From NCBI GenBank assembly GCA_018901715.1, contig JAHIEL010000087.1, positions 1-26,246 on the forward strand: DNA of 26,246 nt, written 5' to 3'. The notes beneath the pieces were generated by a model, which ran no database searches, was not told the DNA's origin, and worked only from the letters and a program-made list of their open reading frames with translations. The translations under genes and the position numbers were made by a program. Positions 2,090 through 21,841 of the stretch are shown here, one piece after another (the stretch's first letter is position 1; each line of letters opens with the position of its first letter). The DNA is from Patescibacteria group bacterium (GTDB taxonomy: Bacteria; Patescibacteriota; Minisyncoccia; Minisyncoccales; PEYH01).

Positions 2090-2120
2090 GCGACCCGACC
2101 TCTTTATGAGGTCGGGTCGC
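2090..2120. repeat. GC-rich palindrome, family copy A
   Basis: GCGACCCGACCTC-TTTAT-GAGGTCGGGTCGC, perfect 13-bp stem. Confidence 0.9.
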
Positions 2121-2134
2121 GTGTAATATACTCC

Positions 2135-2162
2135 TTGCACTATCCTTGACATTTGCTATCAT
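2135..2162 (+). promoter_or_regulatory. Putative sigma70 promoter with extended -10
   Basis: TTGCAC(2135-2140)-N16-TATCAT(2157-2162), TG at the extended -10 position; predicted start about 2169, where a long hairpin begins. Confidence 0.5.
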
Positions 2163-2168
2163 ATAAGT

Positions 2169-2229
2169 GGGTCTCCGTGCTGCACTCGCTAATTAGATTT
2201 ATCGGAGTTTTACGGCGGAGGCCCGTAAA
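2169..2229 (+). ncRNA. Candidate structured RNA or leader of unknown family
   Basis: GGGTCTCC/GGAGGCCC, GCTG/CGGC and ACTC/GAGT helices form a bulged rod starting 7 nt after a -10 element; an alternative 3' hairpin is possible. Confidence 0.4.
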
Positions 2230-2237
2230 GAAAAGAA

Positions 2238-2265
2238 ATCATTGATCATTGATAATTGATCATTA
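2238..2265. repeat. Heptamer tandem repeat (ATCATTG)x4, degenerate
   Basis: ATCATTG ATCATTG ATAATTG ATCATTA. Confidence 0.85.
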
Positions 2266-2307
2266 GGGAAAGGAAGAGGAAAAATTATTAATTATTCCGT
2301 CCCTGCC

Positions 2308-2344
2308 CCGCCCCCGCCCTCTCCAGCAGGGAGGACGGGGGCGG
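2308..2344. repeat. GC-rich palindrome, family copy B, directly upstream of murB
   Basis: CCGCCCCCGCCCTC-TCCAGCAGG-GAGGACGGGGGCGG, one C/A mismatch. Confidence 0.8.
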
Positions 2345-2355
2345 AATGGATTTTA

Positions 2356-3306
2356 ATGGCAGATATTAAAGAATTACTACCAGCTATAAGAGAAAATGTG
2401 TCTTTGGCTGATTACACAAGCTTCAAAATAGGTGGATGGACAAAATATTTTTTTGAGGCAAATACAAAGAACGAATTAATCAAAGCGCTAAAGGCAATAG
2501 AGCAGACAAACCTGTCTTTTTTTATTTTAGCCGGAGGAAGCAATGTCTTATTTTCTGATAATGGTTTTGATGGACTAGTCATTAAAATTCAGTTTTCAGA
2601 TTTTGAATGTCAAGATTTAGATATTTATGCCGACGCAGGCGCTAAATTATTAGATATAGTAAATTTATCTGTAGAAAAAGAACTCACTGGACTTGAGTGG
2701 GCTGCAGGCATTTACGGCACAATAGGCGGAGCAGTAAGGGGAAATGCAGGCGCCTTTAATAGTTCTATAACAAATGTTTTAAAGCAAGTAAAAGTGCTTG
2801 TTTTGCCCGATTTGAAAATTAAAAATTTTTCAAGAGATGAGTGTAAATTTGGATACAGGGAAAGCATTTTTAAAAAAAATAATAATTTAATTATTCTTTC
2901 AGCCATATTGGAACTTAAAAAAGGCAATAAGAAAAAAATCAAGGAAGAGATTGAAAATAATATTGCTTATCGCAAAGACAATCATCCTCTTGATAAGCCA
3001 TCAGCTGGTTCTATTTTTAAAAATCCTGAATTTAAAATGATAGATAAAGGGCTTTTTAAAGATTATCCTGATTTAAAAAAGTTTTCTTCAAGCGGGACAG
3101 TGCCAGCTGGTTTCCTAATTGATACAGCCGGACTTAGAGGAAAAAGAATAGGTAATGCCAAAATTTCTGAGAAACACTGCAATTTTATTGTAAATCTTGG
3201 CAAGGCGACAGCAGAAGATGTGCTCGGCTTAATAGATTTAGCAAAAGAAACAATAAGAGCGCTTTTTGGAATTGAGCTTGAGCAGGAAATTATAATCGTA
3301 AAATAG
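2356..3306 (+). CDS. murB: UDP-N-acetylenolpyruvoylglucosamine reductase
   Basis: SFKIGG, GGSNVLFSD, GLEWAAGIYGTIGGAVRGNAGA, PSAGSIFKNP, KHCNFIVN and LEQEI motifs. Confidence 0.97.
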   Translation: MADIKELLPAIRENVSLADYTSFKIGGWTKYFFEANTKNELIKALKAIEQTNLSFFILAGGSNVLFSDNGFDGLVIKIQFSDFECQDLDIYADAGAKLLDIVNLSVEKELTGLEWAAGIYGTIGGAVRGNAGAFNSSITNVLKQVKVLVLPDLKIKNFSRDECKFGYRESIFKKNNNLIILSAILELKKGNKKKIKEEIENNIAYRKDNHPLDKPSAGSIFKNPEFKMIDKGLFKDYPDLKKFSSSGTVPAGFLIDTAGLRGKRIGNAKISEKHCNFIVNLGKATAEDVLGLIDLAKETIRALFGIELEQEIIIVK

Positions 3307-3353
3307 TGATCATCAAATAATCATTTTAAGCTAAGGATATTCCTTGGAAATTC

Positions 3354-3376
3354 TTTTGGAAACCTGGTTTCCAAAA
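3354..3376. repeat. Perfect palindrome TTTTGGAAACC-T-GGTTTCCAAAA (possible operator or REP-like element)
   Basis: 11-bp arms; the 19-bp core recurs exactly, in inverted orientation, at 21380-21398. Confidence 0.85.
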
Positions 3377-3407
3377 TCAAAAGTTAATTTAATAATAATT
3401 TTTTATA

Positions 3408-3806
3408 ATGATTATACAAATTAAAGCCACAAATATTGAATTAAATGAATCGCTCCGGATTTTTGTTGAAGACAAGGTAGGGGAACTTAAAAAGAATTTA
3501 GTTAAGTTTGATGAGCTCCACGAAAAAGGAAGAGAAAAAGTAAATGTTCATATAGAGATAGGCAAGACCACAAAGCATCACAGAAAGGGAGATATTTTCA
3601 GGGCAGAAATTCAGGTTTATTTACCTAAGAAACTTTTAAGAGCAGTAGTTAAGGGAATTGATTTGAGAAGTGCGATCATTGAGGCAAGAGACGAGTTAGA
3701 CAGGGAAATTATAAAATATAAAGGCAAAAGATTGGTTCGGGCAAGAACATGGGCAAGAAGGGCCAAGCTTGCGAGAAGGAGTATGAGTTTTTTAAAAAAG
3801 AAATAA
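3408..3806 (+). CDS. hpf: Ribosome hibernation promoting factor / RaiA family
   Basis: IQIKATNIELNESLRIFVEDKV...FRAEI...DLRSAIIEARDELDREIIKYK fits the RaiA/HPF domain. Confidence 0.92.
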   Translation: MIIQIKATNIELNESLRIFVEDKVGELKKNLVKFDELHEKGREKVNVHIEIGKTTKHHRKGDIFRAEIQVYLPKKLLRAVVKGIDLRSAIIEARDELDREIIKYKGKRLVRARTWARRAKLARRSMSFLKKK

Positions 3807-3823
3807 ATTTTATAACTAAAAAG

Positions 3824-3861
3824 AAATAGGGGACAGTACAACTGGCTCCTATTTGTTTTTT
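3824..3861 (+). terminator. Probable terminator after hpf
   Basis: Imperfect AAATAGG..CAG/CTG..CCTATTT hairpin followed by a T-run. Confidence 0.55.
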
Positions 3862-3870
3862 ATACTAAGC

Positions 3871-3899
3871 TTGACGGATTATTATTTTAATGATATAAT
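3871..3899 (+). promoter_or_regulatory. Near-consensus sigma70 promoter of the PKD gene
   Basis: TTGACG-N17-TATAAT with extended TG; SD AAGGAGG at 3928-3934, 8 nt before the ATG. Confidence 0.8.
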
Positions 3900-3942
3900 A
3901 GTTTTAGCAGAATAAGGTTATTATACCAAGGAGGTTTTCAGA

Positions 3943-4662
3943 ATGACAAGGAGAATTGCGGTAGTAGTAGCAATTTTGGTGCTTACGATTGTCGTTTGCG
4001 GTTGCGAATTACTTCAAAACCTTATACCCACCCTTCCTCCAGAAGCGGTGATAAGTATTGAGAAGACGCGACTGCAGCCGAACGAATCCGTTCCAGTGTC
4101 GGCAAGGGGGTCCACCAGTCCAAGCGGGAATGCATTGACAGAGTTTATCTGGAACTTCGGCGATGGGAGTAGTGATGTGGTTCTTTCTCATCCTCATGCT
4201 CCGCGTTATTCCTATCCTTATGGTGGCAACTATACCATCACATTGGTAGTAAAGGACGATTGGGGCAGATACAGCAATCCAGATACTATTCTAGTTACTG
4301 TGAACCATCATCCTGTGCCTGTCGCATATCCCCAAAAGCTCACTAGTTGGCCGATAGGGCAAGCATTCTATCGCATCCCAGACGGGCAAGTGGTCTATCC
4401 TCGTTCAAGGATTGAGCCACAAGGAATCATTCCAGTGATGTCCTACACATATTGGAAAATTGATTCTTCGTCCTCGTCTGACCGTGATGGATGGATTATC
4501 TCGCAGCACTTGAACTGGGCAGGTAATCATATCGGAAGCGGACAAGTTTTTTACATCGCCATACCGGCAGATGGAAGTATGTACACTATTGAGCTCACCG
4601 TGATAGACAACGAGGGACTGGGAAATAGCATGCGCTATGGTCTCGTTAGCCCTCTCGGTTGA
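3943..4662 (+). CDS. PKD-domain lipoprotein (one clear and one degenerate PKD/Ig-like repeat)
   Basis: Signal peptide ending in a lipobox-like VVCG-C; WNFGDG...YPYGGNYTITLVVKD PKD signature; second YTIELTVIDNEG strand; visibly higher GC than the flanking genes. Confidence 0.85.
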   Translation: MTRRIAVVVAILVLTIVVCGCELLQNLIPTLPPEAVISIEKTRLQPNESVPVSARGSTSPSGNALTEFIWNFGDGSSDVVLSHPHAPRYSYPYGGNYTITLVVKDDWGRYSNPDTILVTVNHHPVPVAYPQKLTSWPIGQAFYRIPDGQVVYPRSRIEPQGIIPVMSYTYWKIDSSSSSDRDGWIISQHLNWAGNHIGSGQVFYIAIPADGSMYTIELTVIDNEGLGNSMRYGLVSPLG

Positions 4663-4668
4663 GACCCA

Positions 4669-4711
4669 CGCCCCCTGTTCGTTTTTAGAACAGCGGGGCG
4701 CTTCTTTTTTT
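4669..4711 (+). terminator. Intrinsic terminator after the PKD gene
   Basis: CGCCCC-CTGTTC / GAACAG-C-GGGGCG stem followed by CTTC and a T-run. Confidence 0.8.
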
Positions 4712-4736
4712 ATTTTTAGTATGTTAGATTTATAGT

Positions 4737-7256
4737 ATGTCTATACTCAAAAAAATCTTTGGGGACGAGAATGAAAAATATTTAAAAAAGATTCAGCCCT
4801 TGGCAGATGAGATAAATAAACTTGAAAAACAATTTGAGCAGTTTTCAGATGAGGAGCTGAAAAATAAAACAAAAGAATTTAAAGAGCAGATTAAAAAAGG
4901 CGAAAAAATAGATACTCTTTTACCTCAAGCATATGCTTTGGTGCGGGAGGCAGCTAAAAAAACATTAAATCAAAGGCATTTTGATGTTCAGTTGCTTGGT
5001 GGTATTGCTTTGCATCAATCCAAGATTACAGAAATGAAAACAGGAGAAGGCAAAACCCTTGCCTCAACCCTGCCAACTTATTTAAATGCTTTAGAGGAAA
5101 AAGGTGTTCATATTGTTACAGTAAACGAATATTTGGCAAAAAGAGATACTATTTGGATGGGGCAAATATATTATGCATTGGGATTAACGGTTGGTTGTTT
5201 AATTCATGATGGGGCTTTAATATATGACCCTAATTATCAGCCAAGCGAAGAGCCAGAAGAGCAAGACAAAGAAAGGGATGAGCTTGGCGGATTTAAAGTA
5301 ATAGAAAGCTATTTAAGGCCTGCTTCAAGAAAAGAAGCATATTCAGCAGATATTACTTATGGCACTAATCACGAGTTTGGATTTGATTATTTGCGAGATA
5401 ATATGGTTCATAAGCCGGAGCAAAGAGTTCAAAGAGGGCTTAATTTTGCGATTATTGACGAAGTTGACTCTGTTTTAATAGATGAGGCAAGAACTCCTCT
5501 TATTATCTCTGCTCCTGATATGGAAAGTTCAAAACTTTATAGCGAATTTTCTACTTTAATACCCAGATTAAGCAAAGATACTGATTATGAAATTCACGAG
5601 AAAGAGAAAGCCGTAACATTAACAGAAATAGGCATTGAAAAAATTGAAAAAATACTTGGTATTGAAAATATTTATCAGGAAAAAGGTATTAAATATCTTC
5701 ATTATTTAGAACAGGCATTGCGGGCAAATGTTTTATTTCAAAAAGATAGAGATTATGTTTCCAGAAATGGCGAGATTATTATTGTAGATGAATTTACTGG
5801 CCGTTTAATGCCAGGCAGAAGATGGTCAGGTGGTTTGCATCAGGCAGTAGAGGCAAAAGAAGGGCTTAGCGTTAAGCCAGAGTCATTAACATTGGCATCT
5901 ATTTCAATTCAGAATTATTTTAGAATGTATGATAAGTTGGCAGGAATGACTGGCACTGCTGTTACTTCTGCGGAAGAATTTGAAAAAGTTTATAAGCTTA
6001 GAGTAATTGTAATGCCAACAAATAAACCCATAGCAAGAAATGACTTATCAGATGTTGTTTATAAAACGAATAAAGAAAAATTAAAAGCATTGGTTGAAAG
6101 AACAAAAAGAGCAAATAAAGAGGGCCAGCCAGTATTGATTGGCACTCGGTCTATTGAAAAGAATGAGATTCTAGGACAAATGCTTAAGATAGAGGGCGTT
6201 ACTCATGAAATTTTAAATGCCAAACATCATCAGAGGGAAGGTGAAATTATTGCCCAAGCAGGTCGGTTTAAAGCAGTTACAGTTGCTACAAATATGGCAG
6301 GCAGGGGAGTAGATATTGTGTTTGGCGGAAATCCGCCAAATCCTGAAGAAGCTAAAAAAGTAAAAGAACTTGGCGGGCTTTTGGTTTTATGCACGGAAAG
6401 GCATGAAGCAAGAAGAATTGATAATCAGTTAAGAGGACGGTCTGGCAGACAGGGTGACCCTGGCGAAACTCAATTTTTCTTATCTATGGAAGATGATTTA
6501 ATGAGAATTTTTGGCGGGGAAAGAATGAAAAATATAATGGATCGGTTAAAATTACCAGATGACCAGCCAATTCAGTCAAAAATAATATCTAATACTGTAG
6601 AATCAGCCCAAGCAAAAATTGAAGGAATGAACTTTGATGCGCGAAAGCATCTTTTAGAATATGATGATGTGATGAATGTTCATAGAACTTCTTTTTATAA
6701 GAAAAGGAATATGCTCGTAGATGCAGACGATGATAAATTAAAAGAATTGGTTTTAAAATATTTTGATAATCAAGAAGCAGATAAAGAGAATTTTATTAAA
6801 AAAGAAAAAGAATTTGGCAATGAATTTAAAAATATATTGCGATATATTTGTCTTAAAGTTTATGATTCACTGTGGCTTAATCATTTAGCAGAAATGGATT
6901 ATCTGCGGGACAGGGTGAGCTTGCGCGCTTATGGACAAATGGATCCATTAGTAGAATACAAGGGCGATGGGTATAAAATGTTTAAGGATTTGATGGTTGC
7001 CTTAGAAGCTAATATCATAGAAGCAGTAACTAGCGTAGCATTAAAGCCACAAGAACAGATGTCCGGAGGTTTAGCCCCTAAACATTTTCAAGATTCAAAA
7101 ACATTGGAACAGGTTGAAAATAGGAATTCTGTTCAGGTGCGACCTGCGCAAAGCAAGAAAAAGCCGGGCAGAAATGATCCCTGCCCGTGTGGTAAAACCG
7201 ACCCCCAAACTGGCAAATCAATGAAATACAAAAAGTGCTGCGGCGCTAAGGGATAA
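4737..7256 (+). CDS. secA: Preprotein translocase ATPase SecA
   Basis: EMKTGEGKTL, IIDEVDSVLIDEARTPLIIS, TNMAGRGVDI, HEARRIDNQLRGRSGRQGDPG; C-terminal GRNDPCPCG..KYKKCC. Confidence 0.99.
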   Translation: MSILKKIFGDENEKYLKKIQPLADEINKLEKQFEQFSDEELKNKTKEFKEQIKKGEKIDTLLPQAYALVREAAKKTLNQRHFDVQLLGGIALHQSKITEMKTGEGKTLASTLPTYLNALEEKGVHIVTVNEYLAKRDTIWMGQIYYALGLTVGCLIHDGALIYDPNYQPSEEPEEQDKERDELGGFKVIESYLRPASRKEAYSADITYGTNHEFGFDYLRDNMVHKPEQRVQRGLNFAIIDEVDSVLIDEARTPLIISAPDMESSKLYSEFSTLIPRLSKDTDYEIHEKEKAVTLTEIGIEKIEKILGIENIYQEKGIKYLHYLEQALRANVLFQKDRDYVSRNGEIIIVDEFTGRLMPGRRWSGGLHQAVEAKEGLSVKPESLTLASISIQNYFRMYDKLAGMTGTAVTSAEEFEKVYKLRVIVMPTNKPIARNDLSDVVYKTNKEKLKALVERTKRANKEGQPVLIGTRSIEKNEILGQMLKIEGVTHEILNAKHHQREGEIIAQAGRFKAVTVATNMAGRGVDIVFGGNPPNPEEAKKVKELGGLLVLCTERHEARRIDNQLRGRSGRQGDPGETQFFLSMEDDLMRIFGGERMKNIMDRLKLPDDQPIQSKIISNTVESAQAKIEGMNFDARKHLLEYDDVMNVHRTSFYKKRNMLVDADDDKLKELVLKYFDNQEADKENFIKKEKEFGNEFKNILRYICLKVYDSLWLNHLAEMDYLRDRVSLRAYGQMDPLVEYKGDGYKMFKDLMVALEANIIEAVTSVALKPQEQMSGGLAPKHFQDSKTLEQVENRNSVQVRPAQSKKKPGRNDPCPCGKTDPQTGKSMKYKKCCGAKG

Positions 7257-7260
7257 AGCT

Positions 7261-7674
7261 ATGGTAAATAAATATGTTGAAATAATTTTAAAAGATGATC
7301 AAGGAAGAATTCTTTTTCAGCTTAGAGATGAACGGCCGAAGAGATATCCGAACTTTTGGGCTTTTTTTGGTGGTGGCGTTGATGATGGAGAAACTCCAGA
7401 GGAAACGCTACATAGAGAAATAGCTGAAGAATTAGGGATAGAAAATTTGAAAAATTATAAGTTGTTCAAAATTTATAAACTTAAAGATGATAAAGGTAAT
7501 TATGAAGAGCATTATGTTTTTATTATCCATATTAAAGGCATTGTTCCAGATATGAAATTGAAACTTAGAGAAGGAAGAGGAATGGCCTTTCTTTCGTTTG
7601 AAGAAGTTATGCATATGCAATTTGTTGAAGATTACAGATTTATACTCAAAGATTTATTTTATTCAAGCAATTAA
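7261..7674 (+). CDS. Nudix hydrolase
   Basis: Nudix box GGGVDDGETPEETLHREIAEELG. Confidence 0.92.
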   Translation: MVNKYVEIILKDDQGRILFQLRDERPKRYPNFWAFFGGGVDDGETPEETLHREIAEELGIENLKNYKLFKIYKLKDDKGNYEEHYVFIIHIKGIVPDMKLKLREGRGMAFLSFEEVMHMQFVEDYRFILKDLFYSSN

Positions 7675-7712
7675 AAATTAAAGAGAAGTCGTTTTTTGAG
7701 CGATTTTTTTAT

Positions 7713-7741
7713 TTGACTTTTTATGTCTTTATGAATATGAT
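7713..7741 (+). promoter_or_regulatory. Putative sigma70 promoter of secD-metK-secF
   Basis: TTGACT-N17-TATGAT. Confidence 0.6.
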
Positions 7742-7773
7742 AATAAAACCTATTTTTTTAATTCAAATCAGAA

Positions 7774-9132: not shown

Positions 9133-9134
9133 TC

Positions 9135-10286: not shown

Positions 10287-11191
10287 AATTTCCATTTTTA
10301 AAATATAGTAAAATTTATTTCTCTGTTTCCCTGTCTTTGGCAATCTTAAGCATTGTCGCGGTTTTGATTTTTGGCTTGAATTGGGGAATTGATTTTGTTG
10401 GTGGAAGTATCTTAGATATTTCCTATGGCGAGACAGAACTTCGGCCAAGCCAACAAGATATAAGCTCTAAACTTAAAGAAATTGGTTTAGATAATTTTTC
10501 AGTTCGTTCACAAGGAGAAATGGGAATTGTGATAAGAATACCAGAAGTGTCTCAAGCAACAAAAGATAAGTTATTAGATTATTTTTATAATGCTGAGGGA
10601 GTAGAAATAGAAAAAATTGGGCTTGAATCAGTTAGCCCTGTTATCGGCGGGGAAACAAAAAACAAAGCTATAAACGCTATATTTTATGCTGTAATTGCCA
10701 TTGTTATTTATGTTGCTGTTGTTTTTAGAAAAGTATCAAAGCCAATAAAGTCGTGGCAATACGGCATTGCCACTGTAATTGCTCTTATCCACGATGTTTT
10801 GATTCCAGTTGGAGTGCTTTCTGTTCTTGGTCATTTTTGGGGCGTAGAGTTTTCTATTCCTATTTTAACCGCTTTATTAACTATTTTTGGATATTCAGTA
10901 AATGATACAGTTGTTGTTTTTGACAGGATTAGAGAGAACTTGATAATAGGCAAAGGGGAGACATTTGATCAAATAGTTGATGAGAGTTTAAACCAAACTC
11001 TTGTCCGTTCTATTAATACTTCGCTCACCACTCTTTTCGTGCTTTTAGCTCTATTTTTCTTTGGCGGAGAGAGCTTAACTTGGTTTTCTTTTGCCCTGAT
11101 TATTGGGACCATTGTTGGTACTTATTCTTCAATCTTTTTAGCAAGTACCTTGCTCGCGAAATGGCTGGCCTTTTCCCACAGGAATTCTTAG
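10283..11191 (+). CDS. secF: Protein translocase subunit SecF
   Basis: GIDFVGG, IALIHDV, GYSVNDTVVVFDRIRE, RSINTSLTT, GTYSSIFLA; ATGA overlap with the metK stop. Confidence 0.98.
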   Translation: MKFPFLKYSKIYFSVSLSLAILSIVAVLIFGLNWGIDFVGGSILDISYGETELRPSQQDISSKLKEIGLDNFSVRSQGEMGIVIRIPEVSQATKDKLLDYFYNAEGVEIEKIGLESVSPVIGGETKNKAINAIFYAVIAIVIYVAVVFRKVSKPIKSWQYGIATVIALIHDVLIPVGVLSVLGHFWGVEFSIPILTALLTIFGYSVNDTVVVFDRIRENLIIGKGETFDQIVDESLNQTLVRSINTSLTTLFVLLALFFFGGESLTWFSFALIIGTIVGTYSSIFLASTLLAKWLAFSHRNS

Positions 11192-14028: not shown

Positions 14029-14066
14029 TCCCCAAGTCTAATTATTCTAATTTCTAATTTTTCAAC

Positions 14067-14098
14067 GAGGCCCGTCCTCGTTAATGAGGACGGGCCTC
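14067..14098. repeat. GC-rich palindrome, family copy C
   Basis: GAGGCCCGTCCTC-GTTAAT-GAGGACGGGCCTC, perfect 13-bp stem; AATTTTTC/GAAAAATT can extend it. Confidence 0.9.
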
Positions 14099-14123
14099 AT
14101 AAGAAAAATTAAAATTAACATAG

Positions 14124-15425: not shown

Positions 15426-15433
15426 TAAAATTT

Positions 15434-17167
15434 ATGTTGGAGGATAATATAACATTTTTAGGCAGAACTAATTTTAGAAATACCCAAAAGAAGTTTGGTA
15501 TTAAATTAGATGATAGAAGAAAACATGTTTATATTATCGGCAAGACAGGAATGGGCAAAACAACTCTTTTGGCGAATATGGCAGCACAAGATATTCAAGA
15601 TGGATTTGGAATGGCTTTTATTGACCCTCATGGCGAACAAGCAGAAGAACTTTTAGATTATGTGCCCAAAGAGAGAGTAAAAGATGTTGTTTATCTTAAT
15701 CCTTCAGATATTGGTTATCCGATTGGTTTTAATATTATGGAGGTAAAGGATCCAGATGTTAGGCATCTTATTGCTTCGGGCTTGATGGGTGTATTCAAGA
15801 AGATTTGGCCTGATGTTTGGTCTGCTAGAATGGAATATATTTTGAATAATTCTATTTTAGCTTTATTGGAATATCCGGGCTCTAGCTTATTGGGCATAAA
15901 TAGGATGATGGCTGATGTGGATTATAGGCAAAAAGTTATTGATAAGGTAACTGACCCAGTTATTAAGGCATTCTGGACCCAAGAATTTGCTCGCTATACA
16001 CAAAGATATGAAGTTGAGGCAACAGCAGCTATCCAGAATAAAGTAGGTCAGTTTATCTCCAATCCCTTAATTAGAAATATTCTTGGCCAAACAAAGTCAA
16101 CAATTGATATGAGGGATATAATGGATGGGGGGAAGATATTGATAGTCAATTTGTCCAAGGGCAGGATGGGTGAAGCAAACTCAATGCTTTTAGGCGCCCT
16201 AGTTATTACCAAACTTTATTTAGCCGCTATGTCCAGAGTTGAGATTAAGGAAAAAGAAAGAAAAGATTTTTTCCTTTATGTTGACGAGTTTCAGAATTTT
16301 GCCACTGAATCCTTTGCCAGCATATTATCTGAAGCTAGAAAATATCGGCTTTGCTTGATAATGGCTCATCAATATATCACCCAAATGGAAGAAATGGTTA
16401 GTGATGCTGTTTTCGGCAATGCTGGAACTATTATTAGTTTTAGAATTGGGGCTGAAGACGGTGAGTATTTAGAGAAAGAGTTTTTTCCTGTTTTTGCAGT
16501 AGGGGATTTCGTAAATCTTCCAAAGTTTAATATATATACAAAACTTATGATTGATGGTGTGGCGGGCAGACCGTTTTCTGCGGAAACCTTGCCTCCGATA
16601 CCAAAACAAGAGCATTCTTTTAGAGATGAAATTATTCAAAATACTAGGAACAAATATGCAGTAAAAAGAGAAATTATAGAGCAGGAAATTGCAGAATGGT
16701 CGGCGATTGGGATTGGGACAGTAGATAAAAATAAAAACAAAAACAAGCAACAGAATAAGAATAGTGGCGGAGACTATCGAAATAAGAATAGTGGCGGAGA
16801 TTATCGAAACAAGAGTAATAGTGGAGACAATTCAAATAGCAATAATAAGATAGATAATTTGAATAGGAATAATAACAAGCCAGAAATAATTTCTTCGCAA
16901 GAAAAATTTATTCAAACCATTTCTCTGAAAGATGCTACAGCACAAGAGCCAGTATTTTTTAGTGCTCATCATAAAAATAAAAAAAATTATTACAATCATC
17001 CCAAAGAAAAAATTGATGTATCTGGCTTAAGGGGAGCCATTGAAAGCGCAATAGATAGTAGAGAGAATCAGAATTCTAAAATAGAAGAGTATGAGAATAA
17101 AAAAATATTGCAAGATAGCGAGAAAAAGGGCTATTTAAATGCTGGCGAAAAAGTGAATTTTGATTAA
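15434..17167 (+). CDS. VirD4/TraD-like (HerA/FtsK superfamily) P-loop ATPase with a low-complexity tail
   Basis: Walker A IIGKTGMGKT, IDPHG, Walker B LYVDEFQNF, EARKY, AHQY, GNAGT. Confidence 0.9.
   Translation: MLEDNITFLGRTNFRNTQKKFGIKLDDRRKHVYIIGKTGMGKTTLLANMAAQDIQDGFGMAFIDPHGEQAEELLDYVPKERVKDVVYLNPSDIGYPIGFNIMEVKDPDVRHLIASGLMGVFKKIWPDVWSARMEYILNNSILALLEYPGSSLLGINRMMADVDYRQKVIDKVTDPVIKAFWTQEFARYTQRYEVEATAAIQNKVGQFISNPLIRNILGQTKSTIDMRDIMDGGKILIVNLSKGRMGEANSMLLGALVITKLYLAAMSRVEIKEKERKDFFLYVDEFQNFATESFASILSEARKYRLCLIMAHQYITQMEEMVSDAVFGNAGTIISFRIGAEDGEYLEKEFFPVFAVGDFVNLPKFNIYTKLMIDGVAGRPFSAETLPPIPKQEHSFRDEIIQNTRNKYAVKREIIEQEIAEWSAIGIGTVDKNKNKNKQQNKNSGGDYRNKNSGGDYRNKSNSGDNSNSNNKIDNLNRNNNKPEIISSQEKFIQTISLKDATAQEPVFFSAHHKNKKNYYNHPKEKIDVSGLRGAIESAIDSRENQNSKIEEYENKKILQDSEKKGYLNAGEKVNFD
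16754..16828 (+). repeat. In-frame 27-bp tandem repeat (NKNSGGDYR x2 plus a degenerate third copy)
   Basis: AATAAGAATAGTGGCGGAGA(C/T)TATCGA at 16754-16780 and 16781-16807, 26/27 identical. Confidence 0.9.
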
Positions 17168-17194
17168 TATATTTTACAAGGTATAATAACAACA

Positions 17195-18361
17195 ATGAAA
17201 GATATTAAAGATTTTCAATTACATAATAAGAAAGTCCTGGTAAGGACTGATTTTAATGTTCCGATTAATGATAAGCACGAGATTTTAGATGATTTTAAGA
17301 TTGTAAAGTCCCTTGCTACAATCAAATATTTGAAAGAGCAAGGCGCTAAAATTATTTTAATAAGCCATTTAGGCAGACCTCAAGAGAGTGAGAAAATTAG
17401 TTTAAGGCCAGTGGCGAAGAAATTAGAAGAATTGCTTGGGCAAAAAGTGGATTTTATAAACGATTGTATCGGGAGAGGCGCACAAAAGGCGATAGAGAAA
17501 CTCTCTTCCGGTGATATCATTTTGTTGGAAAATTTGAGATTTTTTTCTGGAGAAGAGCAGAATGATGAGACATTTGCTAAGCAATTAGCTGGGTTAGCTG
17601 AAATTTATATTAACGATGCTTTTGCTACTAGCCACAGGGCACATGCTTCTATCATAGGGATTCCAGAGTTTTTACCAAGTGGAGCTGGGCTTTTGTTAAA
17701 AGAGGAAATTACCACTTTATCTTCAATTATTAAAAATCCGAAACGGCCGTTGATAACAATTCTTGGTGGCGCAAAATTAGAAACAAAATTACCTTGTTTA
17801 ATGAATTTTTTGAACAAGGCCGATCATTTAATTATCGGTGGTATGCTTGCTCCGGTAATTTTGGCTATTCATAAAATATCCATAAGCGGACATCATTTTG
17901 AACAGGACTTAGAAGAAGAGGCAAAAAAGATTAAACTTACTGATCCTAAACTGCATATGCCTATTGACGCTTTAGTAGGGCTAAGGGATCATAAATTAGA
18001 TTATTTAAGACAAGCTGGAGTTGGAAAGATTAGAAATGAAGAGCAGATGTTTGATATTGGGCCAGAGAGCATAAGAATATTTTCTAATATAATTCAGGAG
18101 GCAAGCACAATAATTTGGAACGGCCCACTTGGTCTTATAGAAGACGAGAGGTTTGCTAATGGAACTTTAGCTATTGCTAGCGCTATTTTAAGGACTCCTG
18201 CTTTTTCAGTTGTCGGCGGAAGCGATACTAATGCTTTTTTGGCTAAAAATAATTTAAGAGATAAATTTGGTTATGTATCCACTGGCGGTGGAGCAATGCT
18301 TGAGTTTCTAAGTGGAAAGGAACTTCCCGGCATAAAGGCATTGGATTCAGAAAATGAATAA
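17195..18361 (+). CDS. pgk: Phosphoglycerate kinase
   Basis: VRTDFNVP, SHLGRP, LLENLRF, NDAFATSHRAHAS, WNGPLG, STGGGAMLEFLSG. Confidence 0.98.
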   Translation: MKDIKDFQLHNKKVLVRTDFNVPINDKHEILDDFKIVKSLATIKYLKEQGAKIILISHLGRPQESEKISLRPVAKKLEELLGQKVDFINDCIGRGAQKAIEKLSSGDIILLENLRFFSGEEQNDETFAKQLAGLAEIYINDAFATSHRAHASIIGIPEFLPSGAGLLLKEEITTLSSIIKNPKRPLITILGGAKLETKLPCLMNFLNKADHLIIGGMLAPVILAIHKISISGHHFEQDLEEEAKKIKLTDPKLHMPIDALVGLRDHKLDYLRQAGVGKIRNEEQMFDIGPESIRIFSNIIQEASTIIWNGPLGLIEDERFANGTLAIASAILRTPAFSVVGGSDTNAFLAKNNLRDKFGYVSTGGGAMLEFLSGKELPGIKALDSENE

Positions 18362-19556
18362 AAAACAATATTTAAAAGGAATAATTGAGGTCGCTGAAAG
18401 AACAATAAAGGCGGCGAAGAATTCTGAACAAGTTATAATTTTTGGCGATTCCGATTTAGACGGCATCGCTTCTGTTGTTATTTTAAAAGAACTTTTAGAG
18501 TTTTTAAATCCTTTATATGGAAAAGAAAATATATCAGTTTATTTTCCAAACAGAGAGATAGAGGGATACGGCTTGAGTTTTTCAGTGCTTGAGCATTTGG
18601 AAGACAGGGCGCCTGCCTTGTTATTTGTCTTAGACGCAGGGATAAGCAATTTTGAGGAAATAAAAAAAGCAAAAAAGATGGGGTTTGAAGTGATTGTGAT
18701 TGACCATCATCAAGTTTTGAAAAAATTGCCTAAAGCAGACCTTATTGTTAACCCGAAACAAAAGCAAGACAATTATCCGTTTCAGGACTTTGCTGCTGCA
18801 GGTCTTGTTTATAAGCTTGCAGAAAAAGTTTTACAAGAAAAAGAGCATCCTGATTTTTTAGAAGATCGGCTTTTAGAATTGGCTGCCTTGGCTACAATAG
18901 CTGATATGATGCCATTAGAAGGGGAGAATGGAGAGATTGTTGACCGTGGCATAGAGGCGCTTGCTACCACTCAACGACCAGGAATTTTGGCTTTAATGCA
19001 ATTGAATGATATTGATATTAATTCCGAACAAGATATTACTCAAAAGATTATTGCTCCGTTAAATACTTTTAAAATAAATAATCATATTGCTGAAAGTTAT
19101 ATCCTTCTTACTGAACCGTCTTTTCAAAAAGCCAAGAAACTGGCTCAAAAATTAATTCGCCAGACCAAAGAAAAAAAACAGGCGATTAATATGTTTGTTA
19201 GAGAATTAGAAGAAGAAATAGAAAAAAAAGATAGTAAAAAAGCTGTAATTTTTAAATATAGTAAAGCATGGAATACAGCTTACTTGGGCACAATTGCTTC
19301 CAAACTTTTAAAGCTATTTAAAAAACCGATTTTTGTCTGTAAGCAAACCGAGACAGGTGATTGTATTTGTTCTGTTCGTCTGCCAAAGCTAATGGATGGA
19401 GTTAAGGCAATGGAGACCTGTAAAGATTATTTAATAACCTACGGAGGGCATGCGCCTGCTTGCGGTTGTCGGCTAAAAGAGAAAGACCTTAATAAATTCG
19501 GTAAATGCTTAGAAAAATATTTTAAAAAATTAAAAATTGAAACTAAAAATGAGTAA
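18354..19556 (+). CDS. RecJ-like DHH/DHHA1 phosphoesterase (short form)
   Basis: GDSDLDG, EGYGL, LDAG, IDHH, TIADMMPL and GGH motifs; 400 aa, ending soon after DHHA1. Confidence 0.88.
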   Translation: MNKKQYLKGIIEVAERTIKAAKNSEQVIIFGDSDLDGIASVVILKELLEFLNPLYGKENISVYFPNREIEGYGLSFSVLEHLEDRAPALLFVLDAGISNFEEIKKAKKMGFEVIVIDHHQVLKKLPKADLIVNPKQKQDNYPFQDFAAAGLVYKLAEKVLQEKEHPDFLEDRLLELAALATIADMMPLEGENGEIVDRGIEALATTQRPGILALMQLNDIDINSEQDITQKIIAPLNTFKINNHIAESYILLTEPSFQKAKKLAQKLIRQTKEKKQAINMFVRELEEEIEKKDSKKAVIFKYSKAWNTAYLGTIASKLLKLFKKPIFVCKQTETGDCICSVRLPKLMDGVKAMETCKDYLITYGGHAPACGCRLKEKDLNKFGKCLEKYFKKLKIETKNE

Positions 19557-19983
19557 TTCTTCGGATTATATAATCTATACAGATGGAGCGTCAAAAGGAA
19601 ATCCAGGACCTGCTTCAATTGGAGTTGCTATATATAATAGTGCAGGCGTTCTTCTGAAAGAGTATTCTGAATTAATTGGAGAGACAACTAATAATGTTGC
19701 TGAATATCAAGCAGTTATTTTTGCTTTAAAAAAGCTCAAGGCCTTGTATGGAAAAAAGAATGCCAAAGAAAGTATTATATTAATTAATTCGGACTCAAAG
19801 CTTTTAGTAAAGCAGTTGAACGGAGAGTTTAGGTTAAAAGATGAGAAAATACAAAAACTTTTTATTGAGATATGGAATGAAAAAATGGATTTTAAACAAG
19901 TTTTATTTAAACAAATTCCAAGAGAAAAAAATCAATTAGCAGATAGCTTGGCAAATCAGGCGTTCGGAGGAGGGTTACTTTAA
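19549..19983 (+). CDS. rnhA: Ribonuclease HI family protein
   Basis: YTDGASKGNPG, TNNVAEY, SDSKL, REKNQLADSLAN; ATG at 19549 preferred over TTG at 19537. Confidence 0.9.
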   Translation: MSNSSDYIIYTDGASKGNPGPASIGVAIYNSAGVLLKEYSELIGETTNNVAEYQAVIFALKKLKALYGKKNAKESIILINSDSKLLVKQLNGEFRLKDEKIQKLFIEIWNEKMDFKQVLFKQIPREKNQLADSLANQAFGGGLL

Positions 19984-19996
19984 ATTTATAGTATAT

Positions 19997-20033
19997 CATC
20001 TAAAAAGCCCTCTTTTAGAGGGCTTTTTAGATG
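19997..20033. terminator. Bidirectional terminator between convergent rnhA and rnpB
   Basis: Perfect 17-bp inverted repeat CATCTAAAAAGCCCTCT-TTT-AGAGGGCTTTTTAGATG. Confidence 0.85.
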
Positions 20034-20370
20034 CCTAAGTGGCCTATAGGCCGAATTCTGTTTTAGGTGATCATCTATCTAGGCCAAGAGTTACCCCTTG
20101 GCTCGTGCGAGCTACTATATTTGCTCTTGCACCCGGGCAAGGATTTAGCCGTTTCACTCCTTGGGTTTCCCCAAAGATTCACCCCGCACATAAATTATGT
20201 GCTGGGTGCCTTTTAGCTTTCGCTTCAAGGCGTCACTGTTCGCACCTCTATCGTCACCGACGACGGGAGTTACCCGCTGCCTGTGTCAAAAAAGACAGGG
20301 TGTTCGGACCTTCCTCTCATTATCAACGCAAAGCGTTGACAAAGAGCGATCGCCTCGGCTACTTAGGCAT
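20031..20370 (-). ncRNA. rnpB: RNase P RNA
   Basis: P1 AUGCCUAAGU/ACUUAGGCAU; P4 halves GAGGAAGGUCCGAAC and ACAGAAUUCGGC; conserved regions GUGCGAACAGUGA and GUGAAACGG; UAGAUAGAUGAUC. Confidence 0.96.
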
Positions 20371-20374
20371 TTTT

Positions 20375-20402
20375 ATTATATCAAAAATATGGGTTTTGTC
20401 AA
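20375..20402 (-). promoter_or_regulatory. rnpB promoter
   Basis: TTGACA-N16-TATAAT with extended TG on the - strand, just upstream of P1. Confidence 0.85.
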
Positions 20403-20434
20403 TAAGAAGCAGGCGCGGCCGAAGCGGCGCCTGC
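20401..20434 (-). terminator. Intrinsic terminator of the deoxynucleoside kinase gene
   Basis: On the - strand: GCAGGCGC-CGCTTCGGCC-GCGCCTGC then TTCTTATT. Confidence 0.75.
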
Positions 20435-20442
20435 AATAGGGA

Positions 20443-21198
20443 TTAAAGGAGGAGTCGGCTGGTTACCGGAAGCTTGGACTGGATTGCTTCAATTAGTTCA
20501 TCGGTTTGCCATTCCCGATTTCCATCCAGGCGTAGAACTGGAACCCTGATTTTACTGGCATCCAATTCTTCGGAAAGAGGATCGCCTTGCCTCAAGAATC
20601 CGTCGCTTAGAACGAGCAAAGGAGCACAGCCATCGTCGTTGATGAGCCATTGTTTATGGAGCACCTCTAACCTCTTCAGATACTGTAGCTGGATTTTTTT
20701 GATCTCTTCGTCGCGTTCTCTCTCAGGCATTCTTTCCATGCACTCTTCGGATGCTGTGTCGTAAAAAACGAAGAGGTCAGGGGTGTCGATTTTCCCCTGC
20801 ATAATAGCCAGAGCCCAGAGTTGACGATAGAGCATATGTTCCTTTGGGCTCATATCCCCGGATCGGTAACAGTTGAATGCAAAGACATTGTAGTCGCAGA
20901 ACACAGAGCGTTCAAGAATGACCTGGCTGTGATCGGTTTTAGCTAAAACCTCAGCCCAGTTCTTGGCTCTGGTTATGAAAGCAGCTGTTTGGAAAGTGTA
21001 AGCCGCCCTCTCCATATCTTCATAAAACCAATCTAGAAGATTAACTGTTTCTCCTCCTGGAAGAGGGAAGTTTCTCCAGAGAGTGACTGGCTCTTCGATG
21101 AAGTCGAATAGTTCGGATTTTGCCAATCTACGACCAATTGTGCTCTTGCCTGCGGCGATGATGCCTTCGAGTAATATCATGGTTCTATCTCCCTTCAT
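20443..21198 (-). CDS. Deoxynucleoside kinase (dCK/dGK/TK2-like family)
   Basis: P-loop LEGIIAAGKST, EEPV..W, YTFQ, ERSVFCD..VF, LID-like ERERDEE, YLKRL..LHKQWL; SD AAGGAGG 7 nt before ATG 21198 (alternative ATG 21180 with AAGGGAG). Confidence 0.93.
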   Translation of the reverse strand: MKGDRTMILLEGIIAAGKSTIGRRLAKSELFDFIEEPVTLWRNFPLPGGETVNLLDWFYEDMERAAYTFQTAAFITRAKNWAEVLAKTDHSQVILERSVFCDYNVFAFNCYRSGDMSPKEHMLYRQLWALAIMQGKIDTPDLFVFYDTASEECMERMPERERDEEIKKIQLQYLKRLEVLHKQWLINDDGCAPLLVLSDGFLRQGDPLSEELDASKIRVPVLRLDGNREWQTDELIEAIQSKLPVTSRLLL

Positions 21199-21256
21199 TC
21201 GGGAACCTCCTTAGGTTGGGTAGTGTGCAGATTAAACCTGTGTGTCAGTTTAAGTT

Positions 21257-21285
21257 ATCCTATTTCTTTCATCTCAAATAGTCAA
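21257..21285 (-). promoter_or_regulatory. Putative sigma70 promoter of the dNK gene
   Basis: TTGACT-N17-TAGGAT on the - strand. Confidence 0.6.
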
Positions 21286-21336
21286 GTTAGCCATAACTTT
21301 AAACGCAACTATAGATGTTTAACATCTACACAATAT

Positions 21337-21376
21337 CCAGTCCGAGACCCGTTCTCGGGCCGAGAACGGGTCTCGT
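21337..21376. repeat. 40-bp direct repeat 1 containing palindrome family copy D
   Basis: CCAGTC-CGAGACCCGTTCTCGG-G-CCGAGAACGGGTCTCG-T; perfect 33-bp palindrome at 21343-21375; 39/40 identical to 21802-21841. Confidence 0.95.
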
Positions 21377-21379
21377 GTT

Positions 21380-21398
21380 TTGGAAACCAGGTTTCCAA
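21380..21398. repeat. Perfect 19-bp palindrome TTGGAAACC-A-GGTTTCCAA
   Basis: Exact reverse complement of 3356-3374. Confidence 0.85.
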
Positions 21399-21418
21399 CG
21401 GCTGATAGATAATTAAAA

Positions 21419-21447
21419 TTGACATTCTTATAATGAGGTGTTATTTT
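21419..21447 (+). promoter_or_regulatory. Putative sigma70 promoter of the 83-aa ORF
   Basis: TTGACA-N17-TATTTT with extended TG; SD AAGGAG at 21470-21475. Confidence 0.55.
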
Positions 21448-21482
21448 TATTATAGAACTTTATCCGCTTAAGGAGTGAGAAT

Positions 21483-21734
21483 ATGCAAGATATCCGATTT
21501 GAAACAGTAGCAGAGTGCCGACCTCATGTTGGAGAACCGATAGAAGTCACAGTAACGATAATTCGAGATGGCAAAGGAGCCATTATTGGCTGTGATAAGA
21601 CAAGAAAGATCACGCGAAGCAGAACTCAAATTCGGTTTGATATGTTTTCCGGTACAGCTTATCTTATTCTTGATAGGCACAGTTCCTCTGCTAGACGAGA
21701 TCAGTTATACAAAGATCTCGGAGGCGAGTCATAA
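21483..21734 (+). CDS. Hypothetical 83-aa orphan protein
   Basis: SD 7 nt upstream, own promoter and terminator, GC above background; no recognised motif. Confidence 0.7.
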   Translation: MQDIRFETVAECRPHVGEPIEVTVTIIRDGKGAIIGCDKTRKITRSRTQIRFDMFSGTAYLILDRHSSSARRDQLYKDLGGES

Positions 21735-21747
21735 TGGCGCTAATCTT

Positions 21748-21786
21748 GGGACGAGCACAATCACGCTCGTCCCGCTCTTTTTTTTT
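21748..21786 (+). terminator. Intrinsic terminator of the 83-aa ORF
   Basis: GGGACGAGC-ACAATCAC-GCTCGTCCC followed by GCTC and T9. Confidence 0.85.
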
Positions 21787-21801
21787 GCGATAAAGATCAA
21801 C

Positions 21802-21841
21802 CCAGTCCGAGACCCGTTCTCTGGCCGAGAACGGGTCTCGT
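21802..21841. repeat. 40-bp direct repeat 2 containing palindrome family copy E
   Basis: CCAGTC-CGAGACCCGTTCTC-TGGCC-GAGAACGGGTCTCG-T; flanked by TTTTTGCGATAAAGAT at 21782-21797 and 21843-21858. Confidence 0.95.

Follow-up and report, generated by a model that had tools for sequence, protein, structure and literature searches.

The window, that is, the whole stretch of 26,246 nucleotides that was analysed, carries five GC-rich hairpins, copies A to E (Table 1), among them one just before murB, one between dNK and an 83-aa ORF, and one behind an orphan gene. All five fit the motif CCCGNYCTC-N3-12-GAGRNCGGG (matches at 2094, 2313, 14071, 21348, and 21813), and none of 100 dinucleotide-preserving shuffles of the window contained any match, so that the five copies with a common motif described in the initial annotation stand exactly as counted. 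Its description of the variable core positions was also accurate (AC/GT in A, TC/GA in C, TT/AA in D and E, and one C/A mismatch in B, which becomes a T.G wobble on the minus strand), and the outer arms do differ while still pairing, as it had stated (GCGA/TCGC, CCGCC/GGCGG, GAGG/CCTC, and CGAGA/TCTCG). Folded as single-stranded DNA, the copies have energies between -17 and -19.5 kcal/mol and z-scores between -3.7 and -9 (for copy A, -19.2 kcal/mol and z -9.0).

The copies show additional features. The segment containing copy A is enclosed by two direct repeats of about 20 bp, and beside the hairpin lies a "third arm"; such an extra arm, with a G/C-rich spacer on one side, is found in most S3-type copies. 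Copy B has a C-rich tail at 2293–2307, and copy C is a head-to-head doublet of a 15-nt mini-hairpin (CGAGG-CCCGT-CCTCG). A single 45-nt repeat accounts for both D and E, which are 96% identical and not independent members of the family. The pairing of a D-type hairpin with a GGAAACC palindrome is repeated at C5:7318, and the GGAAACCWGGTTTCC palindrome, which belongs to a separate repeat family with 10 copies in the genome, travels with copy D. Copy E sits between the two halves of a 16-bp duplication, the first of which begins inside the T-run of the orphan gene's terminator.

Table 1. Hairpin copies and neighbouring repeats in the window
Feature	Position	Strand	Description
Direct repeat (~20 bp), first copy	2038..2057	+	core TATCCTTGACAT at 2046–2057
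"Third arm"	2067..2077	.	ACGCGACCCGA; repeats left arm of copy A
Copy A	2090..2120	.	13-bp stem GCGACCCGACCTC / GAGGTCGGGTCGC, loop TTTAT; subfamily S3
Direct repeat (~20 bp), second copy	2133..2152	+	core at 2141–2152
Copy B element	2293..2344	-	hairpin 2308–2344, 9-nt loop; subfamily S1
GGAAACCWGGTTTCC palindrome, second window copy	3356..3376	.	separate repeat family
Copy C element	14064..14106	.	hairpin 14067–14098; subfamily S2
Mosaic block of three palindromes	21289..21419	.	between dNK and 83-aa ORF
Mosaic palindrome	21312–21328		TAGATGTTTAACATCTA; in block 21289..21419
Copy D	21337–21381 (repeat unit)		stem 21343–21375; subfamily S4; in block 21289..21419
Mosaic palindrome	21380–21398		TTGGAAACCAGGTTTCCAA; in block 21289..21419
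16-bp duplication, first copy	21782..21797	+	TTTTTGCGATAAAGAT; flanks copy E
Copy E unit	21798..21842	.	stem 21808–21840; subfamily S4
16-bp duplication, second copy	21843..21858	+	flanks copy E

A genome-wide family of extragenic hairpins

The assembly comprises 662 kb (0.66 Mb) in 88 contigs, is AT-rich and about 88% coding, is estimated to be 98% complete, and probably stems from a member of the Patescibacteria/Parcubacteria. Across it, 34 exact copies of the motif were found, against 0 for a control in which the same pattern was read backwards; the REP-like reading, which had been made to depend on this count, survives. With one mismatch allowed, there are 36–38 copies, 100% of them outside long ORFs, and copies A to E each lie between ORFs, so that the claim that all copies are intergenic holds beyond the window. 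The copies are mostly located 20–130 nt downstream of a gene, with co-directional genes on either side, and identical 27-nt motif sequences, loops included, are present in three genera. The CCCG-N-CCTC hairpins are a real family of dispersed, strictly extragenic palindromic repeats, and about half of the long GC-rich hairpins of the genome are members of it. At least five palindrome families are present in this 0.66-Mb genome, where they take up much of the scarce intergenic DNA.

Beyond the 9-bp core, outer stem positions 1–4 are paired in 32–34 of the 34 copies, as CG, GC, AT, or TA, a degree of pairing equalled in none of 2000 shuffles, and position N5 pairs in 28 of the 34. Each outer position shows three to five standard pair types, in copies that are nevertheless related by descent. 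Comparison with orthologous sites in a genome of the same genus (G001) revealed double compensating changes from the host (G000), for example at C40:472 (T/A to G/C) and at C35:5830 (CC/GA to TT/AA). Because the outer arms keep their complementarity and not their sequence, these patterns point to a folded single strand.

The subfamilies differ in architecture. S2 (copy C) and S4 (copies D and E) can be read as REPIN-like arrangements in which overlapping inverted doublets are formed by the 15-nt core CGAG[G/A]-CCCGT-[C/T]CTCG, the two inverted REP cores being 3–6 nt apart, while the hairpins of S1 (copy B) and S3 (copy A) are not doublets and begin CCTC-loop-GAGG. Long S2 copies also carry the outer inverted repeats TTCTAATGACAAAT, and S1 copies are oriented both ways with respect to neighbouring genes (4 sense, 6 antisense).

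Gain and loss within the genus

Two species of the genus differ by gains and losses of hairpin copies. Of the 25 host copies with a collinear site in G001, 7 have a counterpart there, and at least 12 of the sites are cleanly empty; in the other direction, 5 of 13 G001 copies are filled in the host. Copies B, C, D, and E are all cleanly absent from their orthologous sites. The 52 nt of copy B are missing in a clean indel that lies 11 nt ahead of the start of murB. The 43 nt of copy C are missing at their own site, and neither insertion was accompanied by any duplication. The entire block of about 130 nt around copy D is missing, and at the site of copy E, G001 has the duplication sequence only once (TTTTTGAGATAAAGAT) and no hairpin. 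Copy A is kept, with one C-to-T change that results in a G.T pair; in G001, its extra arm is on the opposite side of the hairpin, and the ~20-bp direct repeat encloses a 1.85-kb segment beginning with copy A. Y1 transposition of the IS200/IS605 type is not known to make duplications like those at copies E and A.

RAYT-like genes and their hairpins

In agreement with the initial annotation, no mobiliser is encoded in the window; the candidates are three RAYT-like HUH/Y1 genes on other contigs. Their products match Pfam Y1_Tnp at 30–38 bits (cut-off 23) and the NCBIfam RayT equivalog NF047646 at 33–47 bits, short of its 80-bit cut-off. The proteins are 235–268 aa long, exceed the 146 positions of NF047646 by about 90 residues, and have a C-terminal extension; residues N92, H93, H95, Y152, and N156 are invariant (P157 nearly so), giving the NHxH (HUH) and YxxxN(P) motifs. 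The top fold match of an AlphaFold model of one of them (pLDDT 84.5) was PDB 4ER8, E. coli TnpAREP with a REP hairpin (E = 4.5e-6), followed by the TnpA proteins of IS608 and ISDra2.

Each of these genes is bracketed by its own abundant hairpin, a copy of which also lies in frame within the gene, at gene nucleotide 190–200. The most frequent 16-mer in the assembly, with 34 occurrences, lies on both sides of the gene on contig C81, and a 16-mer with 15 occurrences flanks the gene on contig C82, which has 41-nt inverted repeats; the median best 16-mer count per intergenic region is 2. The GGAAACCWGGTTTCC family mentioned above brackets a RAYT-like gene in G001. The three paralogues are only 44–47% identical to one another and are therefore not recent copies, and the hairpin is different for each.

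The search for a Y1/RAYT gene flanked by the element itself succeeded only in a genome of the same order (G091); in this assembly, each such gene is flanked by a hairpin family of its own. In G091, a hairpin that fits the motif (GGAGACCCGCTCTCCCC..GGGGAGAGCGGGTCTCC) occurs twice upstream of a RAYT-like gene, once in frame, and once at the 3' end, and one compensating pair separates its arms from those of D and E. None of the RAYT-like genes of the present genome is flanked by an S1 or S3 hairpin, and the hairpins that do flank them have tops that are the reverse of these (GAGG-loop-CCTC). The S2 copies, in turn, have an exact stretch of 18–21 nt in common with the flanking hairpin of the C82 gene, and both S2 and S4 copies contain the 15–21-nt core of this flank. 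Seven of 40 relatives encode a homologue at least 60% identical to the C82 protein, and the motif was detected in 6 of these 7 and in 2 of the other 33, a co-occurrence that is at most suggestive, as the relatives are not independent; the genome with the closest homologue (G005, 73% identity) has zero copies of the motif.

Interpretation and comparison with known systems

Some 36 intergenic palindromes and three RAYT-like genes point to a system of the REP/RAYT type. We consider it likely that the five hairpins are REP-type elements that serve as folded single-stranded DNA substrates of a RAYT-like HUH/Y1 nuclease; the REP-like reading of the initial annotation is supported by the family count, the compensated pairing, the RAYT-like genes, and the cognate hairpin in G091. 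Arguing the other way are the lack of S1 or S3 hairpins beside the RAYT-like genes of this genome, the missing tag, the low RayT scores and extra length of the proteins, the repeats around copies E and A, and the zero count in G005. In single-stranded DNA, for instance at a replication fork, the palindrome would fold into a GC-rich hairpin of 13–15 bp, which the nuclease would recognise by its shape and by the conserved bases CCCG and CCTC, and the presumed catalysis would consist of cleaving and rejoining single strands. In the long run, the element would be copied into further intergenic sites and deleted from some. The enzyme acting on S1 and S3 may be one of the three RAYT-like proteins or one missing from the 88-contig assembly.

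Ordinary or U-tract-poor terminators, or RNA-stability hairpins, made alike by convergence on GC stems in AT-rich DNA, would fit the very stable stems and the usual position shortly past a gene with co-directional neighbours. Copies E, D, and A (the last on the minus strand) pass a lenient terminator scan, and the initial annotation was mistaken in placing no copy directly before a U-run, since TCTTTTT comes directly after E and TGTTTT directly after D. However, a T-rich tail on either strand accompanies 8 of 38 copies (3 of 38 under a stricter rule), and in a single copy of the 38 the tail has the same sense as a gene whose end lies within 300 nt; moreover, neither D nor A has a gene to terminate, and E comes after a canonical terminator that belongs to the orphan gene itself. 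With so few U-tracts the copies are not ordinary terminators, and convergence cannot explain the identical 27-nt sequences and loops in three genera, the clean presence or absence between congeners, or a RAYT-like gene that has this hairpin type both on its flanks and in its interior, all of which leaves this reading very unlikely.

It is also unlikely that the hairpins are miniature inverted-repeat elements (MITEs) that owe their cut-and-paste movement to a DDE or IS110-type transposase rather than to a Y1 nuclease. The duplication at E, the direct repeat at A, and the outer inverted repeats of the long S2 copies would suit such elements, and one IS110-family gene is present (C12:1071–2210), but it has no flanking motif, and rve, DDE_Tnp_1, and TnpB have no match in this nearly complete assembly. 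In addition, the insertions of B and C lack a duplication, and the element is a single hairpin, not two ends around a core. Least probable among the readings weighed is that each copy was not spread by copying but is selected at its site, because a nucleoid protein or a dimeric DNA-binding regulator recognises it or because it forms part of a structured regulatory RNA. Although conservation in some orthologous copies far exceeds that of their flanks (e.g., C3:3754), and copy B supplies a GGAGG close to the start of murB, the conservation of complementarity without sequence in the outer arms, the mixed orientation of S1, the lack of most copies in the sister species, and the absence of any matching Rfam family all argue against it.

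As probable REP-type elements, the hairpins resemble the REP/BIME sequences of E. coli and the REPtrons of TnpAREP (RAYT, YafM) (Nunvar 2010, PMC2817692; Messing 2012, PMC3479197, PDB 4ER8) in being short, GC-rich, imperfect palindromes with many extragenic copies and mosaics with other motifs; as in those systems, HUH/Y1 nuclease genes of the genome are bracketed by hairpins of their own. They differ in their host, a 0.66-Mb Patescibacteria-type genome, in numbering tens and not hundreds, in the in-frame hairpin of each gene, and in the sub-cut-off RayT score and C-terminal extension of the proteins. The canonical GTAG tag is absent, as had been stated: only 4 of 38 copies have GTAG or CTAC at a distance of 8 nt or less from the foot of the stem. 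Nor is a CGTC tag conserved, CGTC being found solely within the stem.

Like the REPIN-RAYT systems of Pseudomonas fluorescens SBW25 and relatives (Bertels and Rainey 2011, PMC3116915; Bertels 2017, PMC5581495), this genome has several diverged RAYT paralogues with one repeat family each, RAYT genes flanked by 16-mers of top abundance, and, in S2 and S4, apparent doublets of inverted REPs that form one long hairpin. The doublets measure 32–33 nt, against about 100 bp for SBW25 REPINs, because their REP units overlap or abut, and S1 and S3 are no doublets at all. REPIN-linked RAYTs belong to Groups 2 and 3 only, in Gammaproteobacteria (PMC3116915; PMC5581495). The account of TIRtrons (TIRYT; Di Nocera 2013, PMC3733652) describes tyrosine-transposase genes flanked by long inverted repeats with a self-complementary tract, the repeats forming moderately abundant dispersed families, which recalls the repeats of the C82 gene; the sequences it lists are unrelated to ours, and its abstract reports tagged REPs in 8 phyla, of which the abstract names only Proteobacteria, Cyanobacteria, and Planctomycetes.

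With IS200/IS605 elements (the TnpA of IS608 and ISDra2), the modelled protein shares the catalytic fold, the HUH and Tyr motifs, and, presumably, the recognition of subterminal hairpins, while here hairpins far outnumber genes and there are no near-identical multi-copy units. An IS200/IS605 insertion sequence was rejected, given the diverged paralogues, each with a different hairpin, and the lack of a TnpB match in the assembly. REP/REPIN-RAYT systems have mostly been studied in Proteobacteria, where the case has been made that they are long-lived replicators passed on by vertical inheritance.

By analogy with E. coli REPs, the hairpins may also have a secondary role, when transcribed between co-directional genes, as barriers at RNA 3' ends. 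More tentatively, and with considerable doubt, several REP-RAYT replicator pairs could co-exist in ultra-small Patescibacteria, the CCCG-N-CCTC family being either an orphan whose own G091-type RAYT has disappeared or escaped assembly, or a population that the C82 enzyme cross-mobilises, as the doublets are built from the 15-nt hairpin of C82.

For annotation, CCCG-N-CCTC hairpins should not be labelled terminators, and such hairpins probably fragment assemblies of similar genomes. The analysis also provides concrete hairpin-nuclease pairs for in vitro testing. Our literature search returned no paper linking REP/REPIN-RAYT with Patescibacteria. The space given to palindromes in so small a genome, its three RAYT-like genes, and the turnover of the elements within the genus raise the question of how cells this streamlined benefit from REP-like elements, or whether they are unable to purge them. 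If several replicator pairs do co-exist, these would be the first REPIN-like replicators described outside Proteobacteria, unusual in their minimal 32-nt doublets, the in-frame hairpin in the nuclease gene, and the occasional duplication-flanked insertions.

The hairpin family in the window and across the genome

The five GC-rich hairpins reported by the initial annotation, copies A to E, were all present at the places described, as the pattern CCCGNYCTC-N3-12-GAGRNCGGG has exactly five matches in the window and none in 100 dinucleotide-preserving shuffles. Stem coordinates were taken from reading the sequence and from an independent hairpin search. Every copy (five of five) lies between ORFs and, as had been described, the stems vary at certain core positions and have outer arms that differ from copy to copy and yet pair. 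Folded as single-stranded DNA, the copies reach -17 to -19.5 kcal/mol, well under the values of their shuffled versions. The statement that no copy is directly followed by a U-run has to be corrected, since TCTTTTT stands directly after E and TGTTTT directly after D. These two are copies of one 45-nt repeat (96% identical) and are therefore not independent witnesses. At gathering thresholds, the Rfam search of the window returned nothing at the hairpins; its sole match was RNase P RNA (131.9 bits, E = 1.5e-40), which accounts for the high G+C content and for spurious ORFs at its position.

Positions of the hairpin copies and of the features discussed with them (window coordinates unless a genome and contig are named)
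Feature	Position	Size or stem	Identity	Neighbouring genes
Copy A	2090-2120	13 bp	subfamily S3	Wzy-like gene and murB
Copy B	2308-2344	14 bp, one C/A mismatch	subfamily S1, reversed	Wzy-like gene and murB
Copy C	14067-14098		subfamily S2	sigma-region-4 protein gene and unknown gene
Copy D	21343-21375	15 bp	subfamily S4	dNK and 83-aa ORF
Copy E	21808-21840		subfamily S4	83-aa ORF and murJ
Conserved stretch	2125-2228	about 100 nt
TGATCA-rich tract	2238-2265		ATCATTGATCATTGATAATTGATCATT
Palindrome	3356-3376 and 21378-21398		GGAAACCWGGTTTCC
Palindrome	21312-21328		(G)TAGATGTYAAACATCTA(C)
RNase P RNA	20031-20366 (-)		bacterial class A
ORF	21483-21734	83 aa
Canonical terminator of the 83-aa ORF	21747-21774 plus T9
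RAYT-like ORF	G000:C82	250 aa
RAYT-like ORF	G000:C81	235 aa
RAYT-like ORF	G000:C25	245 aa
Hairpin flanking the C82 gene, followed by GTTATCCACAGG	G000:C82:5110-5150 and 5980-6020
IS110-family (DEDD) transposase gene	G000:C12:1071-2210 (-)	379 aa
RAYT-like gene of G001	G001:C1:12102-12572
Extra segment of G001	G001:C1:3960-5750 (L030, L031)	1.85 kb

Across the source genome, G000 (662 kb in 88 contigs, of which the window is C16; 35% G+C, completeness estimated at 98%), the pattern has 34 matches, and the same pattern read backwards, used as a control, has none. The breaks between contigs are probably due to repeats. When one mismatch per arm is allowed, 36-38 copies are found, all outside long ORFs, in an assembly whose coding density is about 88% by crude ORF calling; the family supplies roughly half of its long GC-rich hairpins. 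The copies fall into four subfamilies. In S1 the loop is CCTGCTGGA (9 nt) and one T.G pair is constant, and S2 reads ACGAGG-CCCGTCCTC-GTTGAT-GAGGACGGG-CCTCAT. S3, CCCGACCTC, has a 5-nt AT-rich loop and, on one side, a G-rich spacer with a third arm, while S4, CGAGACCCGTTCTC...GAGAACGGGTCTCG, also includes the copy at position 7318 of contig C5.

Outside the 9-bp core, the four stem positions are paired in 32-34 of the 34 copies, by means of CG, GC, AT and TA, and position N5 is paired in 28; because the copies are related by descent, these counts show that the stem was kept, and not the number of independent events. With arm partners shuffled, pairing occurred in 14-18 cases, and the observed values were reached in none of 2000 shuffles. 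The T.G / C.A asymmetry is not a mark of the transcribed strand, as four S1 copies are in sense and six in antisense orientation.

Pattern searches of 340 related genomes found the motif to be abundant only in G000 (34 matches), the same-genus genome G001 (17, a count from the search of 40 relatives), G016 (8) and G091, from another family of the order (8); elsewhere, among 300 genomes of the order, it is sporadic. Other repeats were seen alongside. With 27-34 copies, the palindrome (G)TAGATGTYAAACATCTA(C) ranks second in abundance among the repeats; it often stands beside other hairpins, and no gene was found to be associated with it. TGATCA-rich tracts followed by purine-rich runs adjoin most S1 and S3 copies on many contigs, and their 16-mers occur 10-15 times each.

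Gain and loss of copies

The window aligns collinearly with G001, at an identity of about 80%. At the orthologous sites of G001, copies B (52 nt, 2293-2344) and C (43 nt, 14064-14106) are missing as clean indels, D is missing as part of a block of roughly 130 nt that also holds two other palindromes, and E is missing as well, the 16-mer duplicated around it in the window being single in G001. Both genomes have copy A, its extra arm lying on opposite sides. When all copies were compared using 597 kb of rebuilt G001 sequence, 25 copies of G000 had a collinear G001 site, seven of which are filled and at least 12 cleanly absent; conversely, five of 13 G001 copies are filled in G000. Double compensating changes were observed in filled orthologous pairs (for example, T/A to G/C at C40:472), the orthologous pair at C35:5830 shows CC/GA to TT/AA, and some orthologous sites carry different subfamilies in the two genomes. 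Presence and absence, double compensating changes and subfamily differences together indicate a dynamic family, whose hairpin is kept by selection or by copying.

Two further readings were rejected. D and E do not package the 83-aa ORF as a cassette, since the ORF, its promoter and its terminator are conserved in G001 without either hairpin. Nor does the extra segment of G001, which lies between copy A and a conserved small-RNA-like stretch and has direct repeats of roughly 20 bp at its borders, code for a transposase; its products are a HIT-domain protein and a protein of 387 aa without a Pfam match. The conserved stretch itself follows a promoter-like TTGACA repeat and shares 94% identity with G001, compared with about 80% in the neighbouring genes; it looks like a conserved small RNA, and it matched no Rfam family.

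The family members are not ordinary terminators. Under the same lenient rule as in the terminator scan, a T-rich tail on either strand accompanies eight of 38 copies, in one of which it is in the sense of a gene ending within 300 nt; under a stricter rule the count is three of 38. In the window, that scan picked out D, E and A (the last on its minus strand) as terminator-like. Of these, neither D nor A on the minus strand faces a gene, and E lies just after the canonical terminator of the 83-aa ORF, its T-run belonging to the duplicated target. In its intergenic contexts, the family resembles the genome as a whole.

At clean insertions, target-site duplications were found only at E (16 bp), together with the repeat around A, which lies between direct repeats of roughly 20 bp; none was found at B or C, and no insertion rule could be derived from the clean sites. 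Y1 transposition (IS200/IS605) is not known to leave repeats such as these. In view of the duplication at E and the repeats around A, a MITE-like or copy-and-slip mechanism may have acted in some insertions.

RAYT-like genes and their hairpins

Three genes of G000, on contigs C82, C81 and C25, match Pfam Y1_Tnp, the HUH/Y1 transposase family. Their products pass the Pfam cut-off, and with the NCBIfam model for REP-associated tyrosine transposases they score 33-47 bits, below its cut-off of 80. In an alignment of 36 homologues, the NHxH (HUH) and YxxxN(P) motifs are invariant or nearly so. The C82 protein was modelled with AlphaFold (pLDDT 84.5), and in a fold search the best match of the model was PDB 4ER8, the complex of E. 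coli TnpAREP with a REP hairpin; the IS608, ISDra2 and IS200 transposases came next. By sequence, the C82 protein alone had no match in the Protein Data Bank, and a profile of the 36 homologues had only a weak ISDra2 match around the HUH motif. Homologues number in the hundreds; those to which sources give a name come from Patescibacteria or Parcubacteria MAGs and are called "transposase" or "hypothetical".

AACGGGGGGAAGTCGGACTTCCCCCCGTT brackets the C81 gene and AATGTTTAGAGGTTGAACCTCTAAACATT the C25 gene, and the C82 gene stands between 41-nt inverted repeats containing TGCACCGAGG-CCCGT-CCTCGTTGCA. When flanking 16-mers were tested as by Bertels and colleagues (PMC5581495), the one most frequent in G000 (34 occurrences) was found on both sides of the C81 gene and another, with 15 occurrences, flanked the C82 gene; for intergenic regions the median of the best counts is 2. 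Within each gene, at nucleotide 190-200, there is also one in-frame copy of its own hairpin, which encodes LQRGPSSLQ, GEVGLPP and QCLEVQPLNI in the C82, C81 and C25 genes, respectively; in the predicted structure this site falls in a low-confidence loop before the HUH motif. Homologous genes of related genomes are also bracketed by hairpins, whose stems have changed in step and whose loop motifs persist. The hairpin flanking the C82 gene is followed by GTTATCCACAGG, within which TTATCCACA is the consensus DnaA box, and the C25 gene has GTTTTCCACAGG at the matching place.

The GGAAACCWGGTTTCC palindrome, with 10 copies in the genome, brackets a RAYT-like gene in G001, located after secA in a segment without counterpart in the window, and hence represents another REP family; no nuclease gene for it was found in the G000 assembly. 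Neither rve, DDE_Tnp_1 nor TnpB genes were found in G000, and the motif was not found flanking its one IS110-family transposase gene.

Relation of the family to RAYT-like genes and known REP systems

S2 copies share an exact stretch of 18-21 nt (CAACGAGGCCCGTCCTCGTTG) with the hairpin flanking the C82 gene. On this basis, S2 and S4 can be read as a 15-nt mini-hairpin, CGAG[G/A]-CCCGT-[C/T]CTCG, that is present twice in inverted orientation with 3-6 nt in between, which would make them a very short doublet resembling a REPIN; the TC/GA versus TT/AA covariation would then be the stem-closing pair of the mini-hairpin, all four places changing at once. G091 has a 268-aa RAYT-like gene with a hairpin, GGAGACCCGCTCTCCCC..GGGGAGAGCGGGTCTCC, that fits the CCCG-N-Y-CTC motif; it occurs twice upstream of the gene, once in frame and once at the 3' end, and a single compensating pair distinguishes its arms from the arms of D and E. 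S1 and S3 hairpins flank none of the RAYT-like genes of G000, G001 or G016. Neither subfamily is a doublet, and both open with CCTC-loop-GAGG, whereas the tops of the hairpins that flank RAYT-like genes have the opposite order, GAGG-loop-CCTC. In a set of 40 relatives, the motif is found in six of the seven genomes that encode a C82-protein homologue of at least 60% identity (G005 is the exception) and in two of the 33 others, an association that is only suggestive because the relatives are kin.

Taken with the extragenic placement, the kept stem and the turnover of the family, the presence of RAYT-like genes with their own hairpins supports the REP-like reading of the initial annotation, which had also noted correctly that the GTAG tag is absent: no conserved GTAG or CGTC tag, as defined in PMC3733652, was found on the copies. 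The full-text literature searched contained no paper linking RAYT or REPIN with Patescibacteria. From known REP-RAYT systems, that of G000 differs in lacking the tag and in falling short of the curated RayT score, both of which are membership features, and further in protein length, the in-frame hairpin, doublet size and host lineage. Among known systems, those nearest to it are E. coli REP/BIME with TnpAREP, the REPIN-RAYT pairs of Pseudomonas, where there are several RAYTs and each has its own repeat family, and the TIRtrons of Di Nocera and colleagues. By analogy, the candidate REP/RAYT-type system of G000 would work like these three.
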